From: Candidatus Campbellbacteria bacterium
GTDB taxonomy: Bacteria > Patescibacteriota > Minisyncoccia > Phycocordibacterales > GCA-2747955
Length of the DNA stretch: 64,000 nt
Direction of reading: 5' to 3'
Assembly: GCA_002747955.1 (NCBI GenBank)
Contig: PDQZ01000010.1
Span: 18,931 to 82,930 of the forward strand
Notes under the pieces: generated by a model
Seen by the model: the letters and a program-made list of their open reading frames with translations, nothing else
Databases searched by the model: none
Told to the model about the DNA's origin: nothing
Shown: one piece after another, positions 44,734 through 57,602 of the stretch
Numbering within the stretch: position 1 is the first letter of the stretch
Layout: each line of letters opens with the position of its first letter
Made by a program: the position numbers and the translations under genes

Positions 44734-45612
44734 ATGAAAAAAAAATATTTAAATAAGGTATTTTATAAAAATGCACAAAAAATGAAAGAAATACCAGATA
44801 ATTCAATCGATCTGATTGTAACCTCACCTCCATATTTTAATATTAAAGACTATTCTAAAAATGGTCATCAAAACAAGAAACATAGTAAAAAAAAATCAAG
44901 TCAAATTGGTGATCTTGATGATTATAAAGTATTTATAAAAGAATTGTTAAAAGTTTGGAAAGAGTGCGAGAGAATTTTAAGACCTAACGGAAAAATGGTA
45001 ATCAATACACCACTAATGCCGATGAAAAAAAAAGATTACTCCACTCATCAAAATAGACACATCTTTGATTTAAATGCTGATATACAACATTCAATATTAA
45101 ACCGTAAAAACACTAAAATGTTTCTTTATGATGTTTATATATGGGAAAGAACCAACCCAAGCAAAAAACTAATGTTTGGTAGTTATCCGTATCCAAGAAA
45201 CTTTTATGCACAAAACACTAGTGAATTTATTACTGTTTATGTCAAAGATGGGTTAACAAATAATAAATCTAATAAAAAAAATAAAGAATTAAGTAAGTTA
45301 ACTGACAAAGAATGGGTTGAATTTACTAAGCAAATTTGGAAAATTCCAATTCCAGGAAGGGGTGATATAGCTTTTGGGGAACACAGTGCAATAATGCCTG
45401 AAGAAATAGTTTATCGTTGTGTAAGATTATTCACATGTGTTGGTGATGCTGTCCTTGATCCATTCACTGGGAGTGGAACAACATTGAAAGTTGCAAAAGA
45501 AAACGGTCGTAATTTTGTTGGATATGAAATAATGGAGAGTTATCGTGATATAATTGATAAGAAAATTAAATTAGCTATTAGAAAAAATGAAGAAAAAACT
45601 CGAAAAAAATAA
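44734..45612 (+). CDS. DNA methyltransferase M1 (beta-class N6-adenine or N4-cytosine)
   Basis: Motif IV DLIVTSPPY precedes motif I FTGSGTT (beta-class order). The true start may be the internal ATG (MKEIPDNSID) at 44782. Confidence 0.8.
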   Translation: MKKKYLNKVFYKNAQKMKEIPDNSIDLIVTSPPYFNIKDYSKNGHQNKKHSKKKSSQIGDLDDYKVFIKELLKVWKECERILRPNGKMVINTPLMPMKKKDYSTHQNRHIFDLNADIQHSILNRKNTKMFLYDVYIWERTNPSKKLMFGSYPYPRNFYAQNTSEFITVYVKDGLTNNKSNKKNKELSKLTDKEWVEFTKQIWKIPIPGRGDIAFGEHSAIMPEEIVYRCVRLFTCVGDAVLDPFTGSGTTLKVAKENGRNFVGYEIMESYRDIIDKKIKLAIRKNEEKTRKK

Positions 45613-46372
45613 AATATATCAAATGGATTGTTTTGATTTTATAAAAAATCTAAAAAATGAATCCGTTGATCTTGTTGTTGTGGATCCTCCTTATAACATG
45701 AATAAAGGTGATTGGGATAAATTTAAATCAGAAAAAGATTTTTTTAATTTTACTTTTAAATGGTTGGAAGAAATAATTCCAAAAATTAAAAAAAATGGTA
45801 GTATTTATATATTTAATACTCCTTATAATTCAGCATTTATTCTTAATTTCTTGGTAAATAAAAAATTAAATTTTCAAAATTGGATAACTTGGGACAAGCG
45901 AGACGGCATGGGAGCAGCGAGAAGGAAATTTAGTAACGGACAAGAAACAATATTATTTTTTACTAAAGGAACGAAACATACTTTCAACTATAACGATATT
46001 CGTACACCCTATGAATCAACAGAAAGAATAGAACATGCAATGAAAAAAGGCATTCTGAAAAATGGTAAAAGATGGTTCCCTAATCCCAAAGGACGATTGT
46101 GTGGAGAAGTATGGCATATAACAAGTGAACGACACAAAAATAAAATTAAAGGAAAAACTCAAAAAATGAGTCACGCAACCCCTAAACCTTTAGATATGAT
46201 TGAAAGAATAATTAAAGCAAGTTCTAATGAAGGTGATTTGGTGGTAGATTTTTTTGTAGGAACAGGGACTACAGCAGTAGCATCCAAAAAATTAAAAAGA
46301 AATTTTATTTGTGCAGATAAAGAAAAAAAATATGTTGGAGTCGCAAAAAAAAGATTAAAAAATATAAAATAA
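45587..46372 (+). CDS. DNA methyltransferase M2 (beta-class N6-adenine or N4-cytosine)
   Basis: DLVVVDPPYN precedes FFVGTGTT. Overlaps M1 by 26 nt. Confidence 0.8.
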   Translation: MKKKLEKNKIYQMDCFDFIKNLKNESVDLVVVDPPYNMNKGDWDKFKSEKDFFNFTFKWLEEIIPKIKKNGSIYIFNTPYNSAFILNFLVNKKLNFQNWITWDKRDGMGAARRKFSNGQETILFFTKGTKHTFNYNDIRTPYESTERIEHAMKKGILKNGKRWFPNPKGRLCGEVWHITSERHKNKIKGKTQKMSHATPKPLDMIERIIKASSNEGDLVVDFFVGTGTTAVASKKLKRNFICADKEKKYVGVAKKRLKNIK

Positions 46373-46377
46373 AAAAT

Positions 46378-47649
46378 ATGGAAAGTAAGAATATTGACAC
46401 TACTAAAATATTAAAGCAGATTTTAGAAATAAAGCCAGAAAATAAATTTTTAAAATATATTGTAAATAGGATACAAAAAGATGATTATCGAGGGACACAT
46501 ATTTCTCAACACAATAGATACACTATGGAATATATGGAGCAAGTGTTTAATACAATATTTAAGATTGCTGGAACAAACAAATTTGCAATTCCTACAGGTG
46601 ATCATAAAATAAATTTTAATGATATTGATTTAGAAACTAAATTTAGTACATATAAAAAAATAGTTGATAGTCTATATGAAGAAACAGGTAAAGGAACATA
46701 CAATTCTGTTAAGAAGAATTTTTCTGTTGATTGGGATAAAATGTCTTTCTTGAACAGGTATGATAAGGATGGAAAGAAAAGAAACTCTTTCAAAGGTGTG
46801 GGAGTGCATTATATACAACTAACTGAGACAGCTGTGTCTCTAATAAAAGAAACTAACATTTTAAAGAAATATAAGATTTTTACCGATGCAGTAGAAAGAT
46901 TGTTTGGGAATAAACTTTCAGAAATTGTTGAAACTATTTATTATTCAGACTACAGAAATACTACTATATCAATATATGAATTTGTTTTTATATTACTTGA
47001 TAGTTCTCTTGGTCGTGAAGAAAAAATTGAGTTGATGCAGTCATATAGAGAACTGCCAAAAATAGGTAGAAATAAATTTTTTGATAAAATGAAGGAATAT
47101 GCTAAACCAAGTAACTTCGATGGGAACAAAACAAAAAAAAGAGATTTTCACAATTGGAAAAATGAGTCACAACAAATTTTGTCATTACTAAAGACAACAG
47201 TGTATTTTGACGTAGTCCTGAATAGATTTTTAAAATTAAACGTTGGCAATACTGGTATTTTTTCAGAAGATATGCTACAAAAACGTTCGGAATCTGTTAA
47301 AATTGATTATTTTAAAGAGCACGGAATAAATAAAAAAAGTAATTTCGAATTACATCATATAATACCTTTTCGTCATGCAAGAAATAAAAATGAATTGAAA
47401 TTAATTGATAATTATAAAAACTTAATATATTTACACAAAAGTAAACATAAAGAGATCACAAAAAATAAAGATAGACATGTTGTTTTGTTTATAGATCCAG
47501 AAAAATTACAACTGTCAGATTTTGAAAAAAACACGATAGAAGCTATTAACAATGATAATACAGAGTACTCAAAAAATGATTCTATTTTAAAAGCAATGAT
47601 GAAACACAATAAATCATTGTTAGAATCTATTTTTGAATATAAACAATAA
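46378..47649 (+). CDS. Putative restriction endonuclease with a C-terminal HNH nuclease motif
   Basis: 423 aa. ELHHIIPFRHARNKNELKLIDNYKNLIYLHKSKHKEI (H-N-H spacing) near the C-terminus. Starts 5 nt after M2, giving an M1-M2-R operon. Confidence 0.5.
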   Translation: MESKNIDTTKILKQILEIKPENKFLKYIVNRIQKDDYRGTHISQHNRYTMEYMEQVFNTIFKIAGTNKFAIPTGDHKINFNDIDLETKFSTYKKIVDSLYEETGKGTYNSVKKNFSVDWDKMSFLNRYDKDGKKRNSFKGVGVHYIQLTETAVSLIKETNILKKYKIFTDAVERLFGNKLSEIVETIYYSDYRNTTISIYEFVFILLDSSLGREEKIELMQSYRELPKIGRNKFFDKMKEYAKPSNFDGNKTKKRDFHNWKNESQQILSLLKTTVYFDVVLNRFLKLNVGNTGIFSEDMLQKRSESVKIDYFKEHGINKKSNFELHHIIPFRHARNKNELKLIDNYKNLIYLHKSKHKEITKNKDRHVVLFIDPEKLQLSDFEKNTIEAINNDNTEYSKNDSILKAMMKHNKSLLESIFEYKQ

Positions 47650-49210: not shown

Positions 49211-49552
49211 TTAAACAATCTCAACTCTTTTCCCAATGGCTTGAACATATCTATAAAATAAATCTACAGACGGAGTTACTTTTCCATTTTCAATCTTTGA
49301 AATATAAGTTTTATCTTTTCCCAACTTGTCTGCAATTTCTTGTTGAGTTAATCCTGACTCTTTTCTTTCGTTTATTAAATCCTCAGCTCGAAATAAAACC
49401 ATCGCTTTTTTTCTATTGAGCTCTCTTTTTTTTGTACCCTCTTTTCCAAAAACAGAATCCAAAACATGATCAATGTTATAAGTATTTTTCTCTGATGGAT
49501 TTTTATTTAAATTTTTACTTGAAAATATATCTTTTTTATTTTTCTTTGTCAT
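49211..49552 (-). CDS. higA: XRE-family HTH antitoxin (HigA-like)
   Basis: HTH LTQQEIADKLGKDKTYISKIENGKVTPSVDLFYRY. Overlaps the upstream toxin gene by 17 nt. A bidirectional terminator hairpin follows at 49178..49210. Confidence 0.65.
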   Translation of the reverse strand: MTKKNKKDIFSSKNLNKNPSEKNTYNIDHVLDSVFGKEGTKKRELNRKKAMVLFRAEDLINERKESGLTQQEIADKLGKDKTYISKIENGKVTPSVDLFYRYVQAIGKRVEIV

Positions 49553-49871
49553 AGGCTTTTTTAATTAATTTAATTTTTTCTAACTCTTTTTTACTTAACT
49601 TTTGATTTTTCTTTTTAATTCCATTAAACAAAACAATTATTTTGTCGTTTTCATAAATATAAAAAATTCTAAATTCGTTATTTCCGTACTGCGTTCTTAA
49701 CTCATAAACTCCTTTTACACTCTTTATCTTTTTTACAAAATGTTTCAGAGTAAATTCTTGTCTAAACTTTAAAATATCAAGGGCCTTCAAAACTTTTACT
49801 GCTTCGTTAAATTCTAATTTACTTATAAATTTATCAAAATAATTTTTATATTTTTTGATTTCCCTATTCAT
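49536..49871 (-). CDS. higB: RelE/ParE-superfamily toxin (HigB/Gp49-like)
   Basis: 111 aa. KGVYELRTQYGNNEFRIFYIY...IIVLFNGIKKK matches the phage Gp49/HigB-type toxin fold. Toxin-upstream order is typical of the HigBA family. Confidence 0.6.
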   Translation of the reverse strand: MNREIKKYKNYFDKFISKLEFNEAVKVLKALDILKFRQEFTLKHFVKKIKSVKGVYELRTQYGNNEFRIFYIYENDKIIVLFNGIKKKNQKLSKKELEKIKLIKKAYDKEK

Positions 49872-53637: not shown

Positions 53638-55995
53638 TTATTTCAAAAATTCATATTCATAAACTTTCGGTTTAATTTTTTGTGCAAGTATTTTCATTTT
53701 TTCTTTTAAATTCAAGTTCAGTTTTGTATAAGTTTCATCATCACTTCTTGAATTCATTCTTCCTGCTTTACTTCTTCCTTGAAAATATTCTCGTATATCA
53801 TAATAACTTGCATTTACATTTGCACCATATTGTTTATGGTAATACTTCCAAAGTTCTTTTCCTGCTTCAAAAACATCTTTTGCTTCTTTTGAAAATTCTA
53901 ACTCTTGATTTTCTTTAAAATGATTTTGATATTTTTCAAAAAACTTTTTATCAACTTCAATTGTTGTATTTTCTGAAAGTTCTTTTTGAATATTTTTTTC
54001 TTTTTCAATAACAATTTTTCCTGATTTAAAATCAGAAATAAAATCTATCATAAAATGATTTGAAAATCTTTCTTTTGCATCAACTTCTTGTTCTGAAAAA
54101 GGAACCCAAAAATTTTCTCCTTCTTTTGAACTTATTCTGTTTTGTGTGTGAAACAAAGTAAAAGTTAAACAATCCAATTGAAATTCAAAATCATTTTGCC
54201 AACCATCTTTCGGATATAAAAATTGATCTCTATCATTTAACCAAGTTGCCTTAATACATAACCTGACAGTAAAAAATATACAACTTTGAATTAAATTTTT
54301 TATTGTAATTTTTATTCTCGTATTATGGTTTTTTTCATTTAATTTACTTGCAATAAAAACCAAACTTCTTTGTTGAAAATCACTCCCTGTAGTATTTAAA
54401 ATACCTATAAAATTTTCAGGTTCTTTTTCTGAAAAAGTTGGAATCCACTGACTGATAAATTTATTGTTTTTATTAGAAGAAATATTCTTAAAGCCTAAAA
54501 AATCACAATTTTTATTATAAATATCAGCCTTAATTTCGTCGAAATCATCAATTTTTTCACCATTCCAAATAAAAAAACCAATAGGAAATTTTCCTTTTAC
54601 ATTGTCAAAGGTGTCAGCTGGAGTTAAAAATAATTTTTCAAGTTTTGGTCTAAAGTTTTGTCTGAAAATTTTAAAATTAGAACCTTGCAAATTTTTCAAC
54701 TTTGAAAAATTTGCAATTTTTGACTTTGGAATTTCTTTATAAATTCTTATTAAAAATTGAGCAAAAAGTTCATTTCGTGCTTTTGATAATTCTGACTCAT
54801 ACTTTTTATAAATTAAATTTTCTGTAGTTGTTCCAGCCTTGTGTTCTCCCTTACCTGATATTTTTGTTTTATTTCCAGCTTCCGCATACGGTGGATTAAT
54901 ATACAAAATCAACTTCTTTCTTTTCTCTTTATCATTTATTATATCTTGTAAACTTTGTGGTAACTTATCAAAAGAGTCATTCAAAAAATCAAACTGAAAA
55001 ACTTGTTTTTCTAACAAATTTTGTTTTCCAGCTTTAATATTTTCATGCATTACATTTACATCAACTTGATCAAGTGTTGATGCATAAATATTATATTTAT
55101 TTGTTAAACCTGCAAGCAGGTTTCCAGTTCCAGCTGCACAATCCCAAACATAATACTCATCTTGCCAATCTTCTCCAAAAACATCTGCAATATACTTTTG
55201 TGAAAGTTCTACCCACTGTCTTGGTGTAAAAAATGCTCCTTTTCTTTCGCGAATATCTTGTGGCACTATCAAGTCTCTTCTTTGAATAATATATTCTTGA
55301 AATTTTTTCTGTGGTGGTCTTTTGTAACTTTTCCAAAAAGATTGATAAATATCATTATTGTTTATGTTAATAGTTGCATCAAACATTTGTTTTAAATTTT
55401 CTTTTGAAATTTTATAACCTTCATTTTGGTAAATTACAAATAAATTTTCTTTTATACTAACATCGTCTGATGTGTCTTGTGTGTTTTTGTCATCTACAAA
55501 CAAATCGGCTAAATAAAAGTCGCTATCTAAAATATTTGATTTTTTTAATTCCTCCCAATCTACAGCAATTATGGGTTTAACAACTTCAAGCCATCTTAAA
55601 TATATTGGAATAAAATTATTTTTATTAATTTTTATTTTATTACTTTGTTTTGATAGCGCAATGTTTGTTTTAATAAATTTCTCAAGTTCTTTTTTGTCTT
55701 TTATATAGTTAAAAGTATATGTATTTTTTGTTAAAATACTTTCTATTCTTTCTTTAATTATTTGAAATTCTTTTGTTTCATGATTTGATGGAGTAACATT
55801 CCAATTAAAATCATTTAAATGAAAAATATCCTCAATAGAAATATAAGGTACAAAAGAAATTTTGTGAAAATCAAATGCTCCTAAAAATTCAGGTGGCAGT
55901 GTTTTATCAAAAGTTTTTGCTTTTCCAATTGTTAAAATTAACTGTACAAACATCGTTACAGTATCATAGTCTCCAGTTTTAGCTTCGGCCCACAA
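53638..55995 (-). CDS. Large N6-adenine DNA methyltransferase (gamma-class, NPPY) with long N- and C-terminal extensions; possible MmeI-like Type IIL/IIG R-M enzyme
   Basis: Motif I VWDCAAGTGNLL, followed about 75 aa later by motif IV LILYINPPYAEAG. About 285 aa precede the MTase core and about 400 aa follow it (TRD-like). The tracked ORF begins at a TTG. The frame stays open upstream through the poly-C tract to a TGA near 56087. Confidence 0.7.
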   Translation of the reverse strand: MWAEAKTGDYDTVTMFVQLILTIGKAKTFDKTLPPEFLGAFDFHKISFVPYISIEDIFHLNDFNWNVTPSNHETKEFQIIKERIESILTKNTYTFNYIKDKKELEKFIKTNIALSKQSNKIKINKNNFIPIYLRWLEVVKPIIAVDWEELKKSNILDSDFYLADLFVDDKNTQDTSDDVSIKENLFVIYQNEGYKISKENLKQMFDATININNNDIYQSFWKSYKRPPQKKFQEYIIQRRDLIVPQDIRERKGAFFTPRQWVELSQKYIADVFGEDWQDEYYVWDCAAGTGNLLAGLTNKYNIYASTLDQVDVNVMHENIKAGKQNLLEKQVFQFDFLNDSFDKLPQSLQDIINDKEKRKKLILYINPPYAEAGNKTKISGKGEHKAGTTTENLIYKKYESELSKARNELFAQFLIRIYKEIPKSKIANFSKLKNLQGSNFKIFRQNFRPKLEKLFLTPADTFDNVKGKFPIGFFIWNGEKIDDFDEIKADIYNKNCDFLGFKNISSNKNNKFISQWIPTFSEKEPENFIGILNTTGSDFQQRSLVFIASKLNEKNHNTRIKITIKNLIQSCIFFTVRLCIKATWLNDRDQFLYPKDGWQNDFEFQLDCLTFTLFHTQNRISSKEGENFWVPFSEQEVDAKERFSNHFMIDFISDFKSGKIVIEKEKNIQKELSENTTIEVDKKFFEKYQNHFKENQELEFSKEAKDVFEAGKELWKYYHKQYGANVNASYYDIREYFQGRSKAGRMNSRSDDETYTKLNLNLKEKMKILAQKIKPKVYEYEFLK

Positions 55996-56006
55996 AAGAG
56001 GTTGTC

Positions 56007-56165
56007 TTATAGACTTGCCCCCCCCCCGAGACTTTCTTGCAGGGTTTGTTGTTTTGAAAATACTGAAAAATCAATATTTCCGATAATTTCTGTTGTATCA
56101 AATAAAGAAAACCAATCTTCTCCTACTTTATTTTTCAACTCTTCTTCTCTTATATTTTTATACAT
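56007..56165 (-). CDS. 52-codon leader ORF ending just after the poly-G tract; potential N-terminal extension of the methyltransferase after a +1 tract-length change
   Basis: ATG (rc of 56163..56165), then MYKNIREEELKNKVGEDWFSLFDTTEIIGNIDFSVFSKQQTLQESLGGGASL*. The G10 tract encodes the GGG codons. Confidence 0.45.
   Translation of the reverse strand: MYKNIREEELKNKVGEDWFSLFDTTEIIGNIDFSVFSKQQTLQESLGGGASL
56018..56027. repeat. Homopolymeric C10 (G10 on the coding strand) tract at the 5' end of the large methyltransferase gene; candidate phase-variation switch
   Basis: agacttgCCCCCCCCCCgagact. Frame arithmetic done by hand: 11 (or 8) G puts the 56165 ATG in frame with the entire MTase ORF. Confidence 0.7.
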
Positions 56166-56258
56166 TTTTTTATTTTATTGTTTCAATTATATCACAAAAA
56201 TAAATAAATTTTAAAAAAACCGCGAAACAAGTTTCGCGGTTTTTGTCTGGGGGAAATT

Positions 56259-56984: not shown

Positions 56985-57446
56985 TTAATCTTCTTTTTTC
57001 TCTTCGGCTTCTTCTTCCTCATTTTCTGATTTTTCTTCTTCTTTTGGTTCTTCTGTAACCTCTTCTTTCTTTTCTTCTTCAGCTGGAGCTTCAGTTTCTT
57101 CAGATGCTTTTTCCTCAGCTTCTTCGGCTTCTTTTGCTTCTTGTTCTGCTTTTAATTTTTCTTCGTCAATGACTGGTGATTTTTTAGGAAGAACATTGAT
57201 TTTTTCTCCTTTAATCACTCCTTCTTTAACCAAAATATTGTGAACAGTTTCTGTTGGTTGTGCACCGTTTGAAATGTATTTTAAAATTTCATCTTTTTTC
57301 AATTCAACTGTTTTTCTGATTGAATCATAGTGCCCAACAATGGCTACGTGTTTGTTTGATTTAACACCTGTTGTCTTGTCTGTTACAACAACTCTGAAAG
57401 AAGGATCGTGTTTTCTACCTACTCTTTGTAATTTTATTTTTAACAT
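56985..57446 (-). CDS. rpsP: 30S ribosomal protein S16 with an acidic C-terminal extension
   Basis: MLKIKLQRVGRKHDPSFRVVVTDKTTG... The start was reassigned to the internal ATG. The tracked ORF adds 13 non-native codons. The C-terminus is E/K/A-rich. Confidence 0.8.
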   Translation of the reverse strand: MLKIKLQRVGRKHDPSFRVVVTDKTTGVKSNKHVAIVGHYDSIRKTVELKKDEILKYISNGAQPTETVHNILVKEGVIKGEKINVLPKKSPVIDEEKLKAEQEAKEAEEAEEKASEETEAPAEEEKKEEVTEEPKEEEKSENEEEEAEEKKED

Positions 57447-57602
57447 AATTAACCCAAATTTTACCAAAAATACACCAAAAGTCAATATTAAAACTTTTTA
57501 TTTTAACAGTTTTTATCACAATCGTTTTCTGTAACTCTTTTTAAAACAAAAAAATTTATAAAATAAAAAATCAGCAAAATTGCTGATTTTTTAAATTTTT
57601 AC

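Follow-up and report, generated by a model that had tools for sequence, protein, structure and literature searches.

A candidate poly-G contingency switch in a restriction-modification-like gene of Candidatus Campbellbacteria

A poly-G tract near the start of a long gene

The stretch of DNA analyzed in this study (the window) comprises 64,000 nucleotides of a Candidatus Campbellbacteria metagenome-assembled genome (MAG), in keeping with the CPR-like organism suspected in the initial annotation of the sequence. On its minus strand, a homopolymer of ten G nucleotides separates a short open reading frame (ORF) from a long one that carries the motifs of a DNA methyltransferase. The features of the locus, each with the basis of its assignment, are as follows.

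53638..56165, minus strand: whole gene, an ORF of 841 or 842 amino acids if the tract is G8 or G11; predicted stand-alone Type IIG/IIL-like nuclease-methyltransferase-recognition protein (in-silico fusion, homologue coverage, structural matches, no conserved neighbour)
56007..56165, minus strand: 52-codon 'leader' ORF at G10, opening at ATG 56165 and stopping at 56007 (alignment with 119 homologues; domain model)
53638..55995, minus strand: 785-codon ORF at G10 with a nominal TTG start at 55995; remainder of the gene rather than an independent cistron (ORF call; start context)
56018..56027, minus strand: G10 homopolymer (C10 on the plus strand), the candidate slipped-strand switch; G9 in the Logan assembly
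56067..56078, minus strand: NIDF motif with invariant D32, putative PD of a PD-(D/E)xK site at the start of beta2 (invariant column)
55978..55992, minus strand: WAEAK motif with invariant E61-x-K63, putative ExK in beta3 (invariant; the tract-bearing loop lies between this motif and D32)
55114..55143, minus strand: DCAAGTGNLL, SAM-binding motif I, residues 342-351 (family-invariant)
54886..54897, minus strand: NPPY, catalytic motif IV of an N6-adenine methyltransferase, residues 424-427 (family-invariant; structural matches)
56186..56215, minus strand: promoter-like TTTAAA-18-TG-n-TATAAT (extended -10), 20 nucleotides upstream of ATG 56165 (consensus match only)
56213..56245, minus strand: intrinsic-terminator-like hairpin CCGCGAAAC-TT-GTTTCGCGG followed by T7, at the end of an upstream gene of 124 amino acids (read from the sequence)
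Downstream neighbours: a metallo-beta-lactamase-fold protein and gyrA (PID83223.1), housekeeping
Upstream neighbours: small hypothetical proteins and ribosomal protein S16

The minus strand at the tract reads CTC, then GGGGGGGGGG, then CAAGTCTATAA, within the wider context CAAGAAAGTCTC-GGGGGGGGGG-CAAGTCTATAAGAC. This is the sole G/C run longer than six nucleotides in the window (29.5% GC), which otherwise contains one C6 and twelve runs of five. Because independent, identically distributed nucleotides would yield a G/C run of at least ten with an expectation of 5e-4 per window, and because the next-longest run is so much shorter, the tract is not a chance feature. GGG supplies 12.5% of the glycine codons in the genes of the window and one of the 28 in the rest of this gene, and a census of repeats elsewhere in the window returned only AT-rich low-complexity arrays.

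The 785-codon ORF occupies the -1 frame relative to the 52-codon ORF. The initial annotation had calculated by hand that a tract of eleven or eight G nucleotides would place ATG 56165 in frame with the methyltransferase, and this holds when the tract is replaced in silico. The G8 and G11 variants each form a single fused ORF of 841 and 842 amino acids, respectively, whose products are co-linear with homologues, and the G11 junction reads QESLGGGGKSIRQPLLWAEAKTGDYD, exactly as predicted. The G9 and G12 variants enter the third frame and yield products of 61 and 62 amino acids, such that translation of G9, G10 and G12 alleles ends after 52 to 62 codons. Also as first described, the large ORF contains no ATG before its codon 15 (ATG 55953). 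Upstream, the methyltransferase frame is bounded by a TGA at 56073-56071, which lies 44 nucleotides before the tract rather than the approximately 60 given initially.

The tract spans codons 46-49 of about 842. The locus displays two hallmarks of a homopolymer contingency locus, namely a long 5′ G/C run (about eight nucleotides or more) that far exceeds the background and a reading frame that changes with repeat number. A genetic code in which UGA is recoded was considered and ruled out, as evident by long housekeeping ORFs such as gyrA that are intact under translation table 11.

The short ORF encodes the conserved N-terminus of a widespread protein family

When the in-silico fused protein is used as a query, more than 8000 homologues are recovered. 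The best 119 of these are 804-865 amino acids in length, are 60-67% identical to the query, and cover 100% of it. Their N-terminal alignment has the pattern KYKNIREEELKNKVG.DWF..FDTTEI.GNIDF.VFPKQ..LFGR.PLLWAEAKTG, to the first part of which codons 1-45 of the short ORF correspond (helix, beta1, and beta2 with D32), whereas codons 46-52 consist of the tract and an out-of-frame tail. The 52-codon ORF reported in the initial annotation is thus real, but what had been interpreted as a leader coupled to the methyltransferase gene is that gene's own conserved N-terminus. One 599-amino-acid protein that co-clustered with the 52-residue product (P0125) is an unrelated sodium:solute symporter, and was set aside as a clustering artefact. 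A look-up of contigs that encode the 785-residue ORF returned nothing on record.

At least 582 species-level reference genomes encode a member of this family. Bacteroidota account for the majority, with scattered members in Sulfurovum, Variovorax, Methylophilaceae, Treponema, Cloacimonadales and Acidobacteria. Judged by this distribution, which is of the mobile-gene type, the family is horizontally mobile. No flanking gene is common to more than five of 80 orthologous loci, and therefore the gene stands alone.

Single-sequence searches with the fused protein gave no match in Pfam or NCBIfam at E≤0.1, and searches of PDB sequences and PHROGs gave nothing useful. PADLOC reported only a weak MTase_II match (E=0.027, residues 299-354). 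A comparison of the family profile with PDB sequences produced only weak matches to Rab GTPases over residues ~492-630 (best E=2e-5), which we reject as chance or compositional hits and which contradict the fold searches described below. These matches fall on an IWDT..E.F-like stretch.

Start context favors ATG 56165 as the likely start

Shine-Dalgarno-like motifs precede only four of the 43 long ORFs in the window, and the usual start context is instead an A-rich sequence directly downstream of a TATAAT box. ATG 56165 conforms to this pattern, with a TATAAT box followed by 20 A-rich nucleotides. The terminator-like hairpin, which was missed by an automatic terminator scan because its loop is just two nucleotides long, ends the upstream gene, and this arrangement suggests that the restriction-modification (R-M) gene is its own transcription unit. 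Two internal start sites were considered and rejected. TTG 55995 is preceded by gacaacctctt, which does not resemble the A-rich context close to a TATAAT box at which the other 43 genes start, and ATG 55953 likewise has an atypical context, with its sole GGAG located ~17-20 nucleotides before the ATG.

These observations bear on a proposal in which function is split in the OFF state. Restarting at TTG 55995 or ATG 55953 would produce a methyltransferase that lacks the nuclease, and the tract would then act as a restriction-only switch or as part of a phasevarion. The downstream ORF does retain all methyltransferase motifs, the product from ATG 55953 would be devoid of D32 and ExK, and there is a weak promoter-like match within the leader (56101-56073, 9/12). 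However, this match is no better than those in shuffled sequence (21 found versus 19.1 expected), and the start contexts and scarce Shine-Dalgarno motifs described above speak against translation from either internal site. The methylation-dependent phasevarion envisioned in the initial annotation gains no support of any kind from our analysis, and the part that would switch is a predicted nuclease-methyltransferase fusion rather than a Mod or HsdM/HsdS subunit. We consider it highly unlikely that function is split in this manner.

The predicted protein resembles single-chain R-M enzymes

An AlphaFold2 model was generated from a 42-sequence alignment (mean pLDDT 65.8), with good confidence in residues 1-170 and in the methyltransferase core. 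The best Foldseek match of this model is DrdV, a Type IIL R-M enzyme (E=1e-9, ~750 columns), and further matches include LlaBIII/LlaGI (Type ISP), M.BseCI, CamA, M.TaqI and MmeI, as well as HsdM. Motif I precedes the NPPY motif IV, which is the gamma-class order. Sequence motifs and modelled fold together establish the assignment as a gamma-class N6-adenine DNA methyltransferase.

The N-terminal ~170 residues, which carry the invariant D32 and E61-x-K63, were also modelled as an isolated domain. The elements of this model follow the alpha-beta-beta-beta-alpha-beta order of the PD-(D/E)xK core. D32 opens beta2 and ExK falls within beta3, and between the two is a low-confidence hairpin loop of residues 40-52, which the tract encodes. 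The best structural match of the isolated domain is a weak one to BpuSI (E=0.025, 179 columns), comparisons with the DrdV nuclease fragment, Cas4 and AddB gave E>1, and a sequence-profile search of the domain returned no match. A PD-(D/E)xK-like nuclease module is therefore likely, at the level of a putative assignment.

Sequence variability across the family alignment is highest in a block just after the methyltransferase core, and this C-terminal region presumably serves in target recognition. There are no genes for separate R, M or S subunits at the locus, where the neighbours are housekeeping genes. In its modelled architecture, the protein most resembles the single-chain nuclease-methyltransferase-recognition enzymes of Types IIL, IIG and ISP. 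The initial identification as a methyltransferase therefore stands, as evident by motif I and NPPY, but the view of the protein as a methyltransferase alone does not. We infer that the enzyme both cuts and methylates DNA, and that it works like single-chain Type IIG/IIL enzymes, yet is not a member of any curated family at the sequence level, such as Eco57I (PF07669) or N6_Mtase (PF02384) of Pfam. Such a large, mobile and uncurated family, which seems to represent a single-chain R-M type, merits biochemical characterization.

The tract resides in a lineage-specific insertion

Where homologues have FG, the in-frame protein of the window has QESLGGGGKSI. The tract, at codon 46 of the ORF, is therefore located within a lineage-specific insertion of ~9 amino acids (~27-30 nucleotides) in the beta2-beta3 hairpin loop of the nuclease-like module. 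This loop tolerates insertions in other family members as well, as evident by L051/P0032 (SFGEGWGG.), L059, L072 and L074.

The initial annotation had held that a lack of the homopolymer in orthologues would refute a switch. Across the 80 orthologous loci, no gene contains a G/C run of at least eight nucleotides, and runs within the loop do not exceed five. However, this absence is not a valid refutation, because the tract of the phase-variable Type IIG R-M gene cj0031 is also missing in many homologues (PMC4889913).

One distant family member from JGI metagenomes (L081) does carry an in-frame G8 in exactly this loop, where PPVSGEMGGALLWAEAK is encoded by tcGGGGGagatGGGGGGGGct. It was the sole match when metagenomes were scanned with a degenerate pattern of poly-G plus LLWAEAK, and the same pattern gave no match in viral contigs. 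A search of JGI metagenomes for the exact flanks with a variable tract also gave no match, and no close relative of the Campbellbacteria allele was found in the collections searched.

Two assemblies differ only in the length of the tract

Inspection of the tract for length heterogeneity, as recommended in the initial annotation, was possible at the level of assemblies. Logan provides an independent assembly of public read sets, in which the neighbouring proteins are also on record, and we compared the consensus sequences (rather than read counts) for SRR6011893 with the NCBI MAG. Contig SRR6011893_13724 (9203 bp) spans the promoter, leader and tract, and aligns to window positions 63939-54736 with no mismatches and exactly one gap, such that its tract is G9 and its predicted product is 61 amino acids long. 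A second contig, SRR6011893_2981, is 100% identical to window positions 53615-40403. Over 22.4 kb, the sole difference between these two assemblies of the same strain is therefore the length of the G run, which is G10 in the MAG and G9 in Logan. This is the pattern anticipated by the slipped-strand idea put forward initially, which it supports.

It seems reasonable to interpret the difference between G9 and G10 as biological, although PCR or sequencing stutter at a run of 9-10 G nucleotides is a possible cause. A related concern is that the homopolymer might have been called incorrectly, and that the true tract is in frame (G11 or G8) in a gene that is constitutively intact. Long G runs are trouble spots for sequencing chemistry, and the disagreement between the assemblies shows that the length of this run is not called robustly. 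However, both consensus calls would have to be in error and to miss the true length by unequal margins (-1 and -2 if it is G11, +2 and +1 if it is G8), whereas everything else in the 22.4 kb is identical. Moreover, a true run of G8-G11 would still be hypermutable. A calling error of this type strikes us as improbable.

The recorded products are those of G9 and G10 alone, and both are out of frame (OFF). Exact look-ups of the G7, G8, G11, G12 and G13 products gave no matches, including when the G8 and G11 products were shortened to the point where the Logan contig stops, and neither of the two assemblies carries an ON allele. We nevertheless expect that in-frame alleles occur.

Recoding could in principle also yield a full-length enzyme from the G10 allele, either through a -1 ribosomal frameshift at G GGG GGG or through slippage during transcription of the G run. 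In its favor, the methyltransferase ORF lies in the -1 frame, G-GGG-GGG formally matches the X XXY YYZ consensus for slippery sites, and RNA polymerase slippage on long homopolymers is established for A/T runs. However, slippery sites composed only of G nucleotides are poor frameshift sites, and no stimulatory RNA structure is evident, since the 87 nucleotides downstream of the tract have the same minimum free energy as shuffled sequence (z=0.04). A different shift would be required for the G9 allele, and the orthologues lack any such device. We assign very little likelihood to recoding at this site.

The gene is intact apart from the tract

A more serious alternative is that the gene has recently become a pseudogene. 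In this scenario, the poly-G tract arose in a dispensable, horizontally acquired R-M gene and is simply an unstable run that is not under selection for switching. The finding of two OFF lengths and no ON allele is consistent with this explanation, as is the NCBI record, which apparently lacks a protein accession for the gene (the flanking accessions are PID83224 and PID83227, with none for P0001). Likewise, ~5 of the 80 orthologues are interrupted, which suggests that the family is often lost. However, the interruptions in these orthologues consist of in-frame stops or an inserted DUF559 element, and none of them coincides with a homopolymer.

The Campbellbacteria gene itself carries no stop or frameshift in ~840 codons outside the tract. 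By comparison, a random ORF of such composition would on average extend for 13 codons, and 790 open codons would arise with a probability of ~1e-28. Among residues that are invariant in 41 homologues, 250 of 259 are retained, including all catalytic motifs, and the nine changes are mostly conservative. The composition of the gene (GC 0.26, GC3 0.14) is that of the host, and such complete amelioration argues for long residence under selection. Given the intact frame, the retained invariant residues and the host-like composition, the sequence indicates that this gene is not an old pseudogene. Recent inactivation, against which the same data weigh, we regard as unlikely.

A proposed switch and its implications

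On balance, we favor the interpretation that the tract acts as a contingency switch, operated by slipped-strand changes in its length, within a Type IIG/IIL-like R-M gene that encodes a single chain, and consider this to be somewhat better supported than not. The Campbellbacteria copy would have acquired the poly-G-bearing insertion between the catalytic D of beta2 and the ExK of beta3, and replication slippage would then alter the length of the run. Tracts of G8 or G11 (3n+2) would permit synthesis of the full-length protein, whose loop would then contain three or four glycines, whereas G9, G10 and other lengths would lead to a stop after 52-62 codons. Because the tract is inside the nuclease-like module of a single-chain enzyme, switching is expected to toggle restriction and modification together. 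Both activities would be lost at once, and the cell would avoid the self-killing that accompanies the loss of the methylase only. Switching of this kind may be adaptive, for example if defence against phages has to be balanced with the uptake of DNA.

In Campylobacter, Helicobacter, Neisseria and Haemophilus, it is textbook knowledge that R-M genes vary in phase through poly-G tracts. Our literature search found no paper that joins CPR/Patescibacteria with phase variation, and phase-variable systems are absent from the text of a 2026 preprint devoted to CPR methyltransferases. The Campbellbacteria locus is probably a slippage-driven on/off switch whose mechanism is familiar from pathogens, but whose lineage is new and whose protein family is uncharacterized. 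If the switch is real, then genome-reduced, uncultured episymbionts also vary their defences through hypermutable contingency loci, which bears on how they reconcile phage pressure with their need to import DNA and nucleotides. Genes of this type are dropped by annotation pipelines, which treat them as frameshifted pseudogenes, and therefore phase-variable defence genes in MAGs are systematically hidden.

A more ambitious interpretation joins three propositions: that this is the first simple-sequence-repeat contingency locus in CPR/Patescibacteria, that nuclease-less but methylation-competent states may exist, and that the protein represents an unrecognized major class of single-chain R-M enzymes. 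That all three hold together is doubtful in our estimation. If they did, an ultra-small and probably episymbiotic cell would hedge phage defence against DNA uptake by poly-G slippage. The tract would split the nuclease motif between D and ExK, such that some states might uncouple restriction from modification, and a family of more than 8000 members in at least 582 species-level genomes would have been invisible to Pfam and NCBIfam.

Comparison with known systems

Among known systems, the phasevarions built on Type III mod or Type I hsdM-hsdS genes (Haemophilus, Neisseria, Helicobacter, Streptococcus) share with this locus a simple-sequence repeat in the 5′ part of a methyltransferase ORF. In phasevarions, the repeat gives stochastic ON/OFF expression of separate Mod or HsdM/HsdS subunits, which act as epigenetic regulators and whose Res partners are often inactive or absent (PMC5909438, PMC7383803). 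In contrast, the putative nuclease and the methylase of the Campbellbacteria protein are fused, the tract falls within the former, and nothing points to a role in regulation.

The structural relatives DrdV and MmeI (Type IIL) and LlaBIII/LlaGI (Type ISP) are represented by PDB entries 7lo5, 5hr4, 4xqk and 5ffj, to which the Campbellbacteria protein is 11-14% identical. The latter is also shorter, at 842 amino acids compared with 919-1500, and does not have the helicase/translocase module of Type ISP enzymes. Searches of PDB sequences and with the family profile gave no sequence-level match to any of these enzymes. To our knowledge, no phase-variable tract is known in DrdV, MmeI or LlaBIII/LlaGI. 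BpuSI (Type IIG; PDB 3s1s) has the same order of nuclease followed by methyltransferase, and is the protein to which the isolated N-terminal domain gave its weak match.

A close functional parallel is Cj0031/Cj0032 of Campylobacter jejuni NCTC11168, in which a single polypeptide with endonuclease and N6-adenine methyltransferase functions is likewise split by an intragenic poly-G tract. The poly-G run of cj0031 lies inside the fused endonuclease-methyltransferase gene, which appears as two annotated ORFs when out of frame (PMC4889913, PMC6321876), and switching, the methylation motif and phage restriction have all been demonstrated for this enzyme (PMC4889913). The tracts are similar in length (G9 in Cj0031, G9/G10 in the Campbellbacteria gene), both are present in some alleles only, and an out-of-frame tract abolishes restriction along with modification, as is predicted on the Campbellbacteria side. 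The two systems differ in that Cj0031 has Eco57I and TaqI_C Pfam domains, whereas the Campbellbacteria protein has no Pfam match. The tract of Cj0031 is also located two thirds into a protein of 1243 amino acids, whereas that of the Campbellbacteria gene is at codon 46 of 842, in the predicted nuclease module. Finally, the host of Cj0031 belongs to the Campylobacterota, whereas the candidate switch described here resides in a member of the CPR/Patescibacteria.

Insertions and gene copies among homologues of the R-M protein

The hairpin loop of the nuclease-like module that carries the G10 run holds G-rich sequence in other members of the family as well. In another lineage, represented by the orthologous locus L051 and the family protein P0032, this same loop contains a G-rich insertion (SFGEGWGG.; the L051 loop reads …CTCCCTCTCCTTTGGGGAGGGCTGGGGTGGGGCT…) that includes a short inverted repeat, CCCTCTCC/GGGGAGGG. 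It may be what remains of a G tract that has decayed, or else a small inserted hairpin. A distant family member from an unrelated JGI metagenome (L081) has two G runs in the loop and is a second candidate hypermutable allele:

L081:115-145 (contig Ga0209737_10295965), minus strand: G5-AGAT-G8, in frame, in the same hairpin loop

The variable linker of the orthologue from a Flavobacteriia groundwater MAG (L078) is split by ~650 nt (L078:7088-7739) that carry three tandem ~45-nt G-rich repeats and an ORF matching DUF559 (Vsr-like endonuclease, E=6e-31). One reference genome, the Flammeovirgaceae MAG of L021, has tandem paralogues: the matched gene and, ~1.2 kb upstream of it, a second family copy of 806 aa.

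Other features of the R-M coding sequence

The R-M gene also contains a palindrome:

54685-54716, within the R-M coding sequence: near-perfect 32-nt palindrome, TTGCAAATTTTTCAA-AG-TTGAAAAATTTGCAA, with 14-bp arms

The Logan contig L083, from a second assembly of the same strain, ends at 54736, only ~20 nt from this palindrome, and therefore a break in k-mer assembly at the palindrome may be the simple cause of the nearby contig end. In the PDB, the family profile weakly matches small GTPases of the Rab family (best E=2.4e-5); the matches fall at residues ~492-630 of the fused protein (window ~54270-54690) and centre on an ‘IWDT..E.F’ stretch. Fold searches give no support for a Rab GTPase likeness of these residues, and the matches are probably due to chance.

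Neighbouring genes and gene starts

Three further loci in the window were annotated:

44734-47649, plus strand: R-M-like cluster, separate from the poly-G R-M gene, ~6 kb beyond gyrA
49211-49871, minus strand: toxin-antitoxin-like pair adjoining gyrA
56985-57485, minus strand: ribosomal protein S16 gene

The first of these looks like a second, distinct R-M-like cluster. It begins with two neighbouring N6_N4_Mtase genes that overlap (292 and 261 aa; E=6e-45 and 8e-61). After them comes a 423-aa ORF, which gave no match in a Pfam search and is possibly the cognate endonuclease. In the toxin-antitoxin-like pair, a Gp49/HigB-like protein (PF05973, E=2.5e-15) overlaps an HTH_3 antitoxin-like protein (E=1.8e-14). 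The Pfam S16 domain covers only residues 21-78 of a 153-166-aa protein, whose long, Glu/Lys-rich C-terminal extension is encoded by a TCT/TTC-rich array of 12-nt periodicity at 56989-57079.

Across the whole window, hardly any gene starts have a Shine-Dalgarno motif (4 of 43 long ORFs). In A-rich sequence only 5-10 nt before many of the ATGs there is a TGnTAtAAT-like box, a pattern suggesting that mRNAs with no leader or a very short one are common in this Candidatus Campbellbacteria organism.
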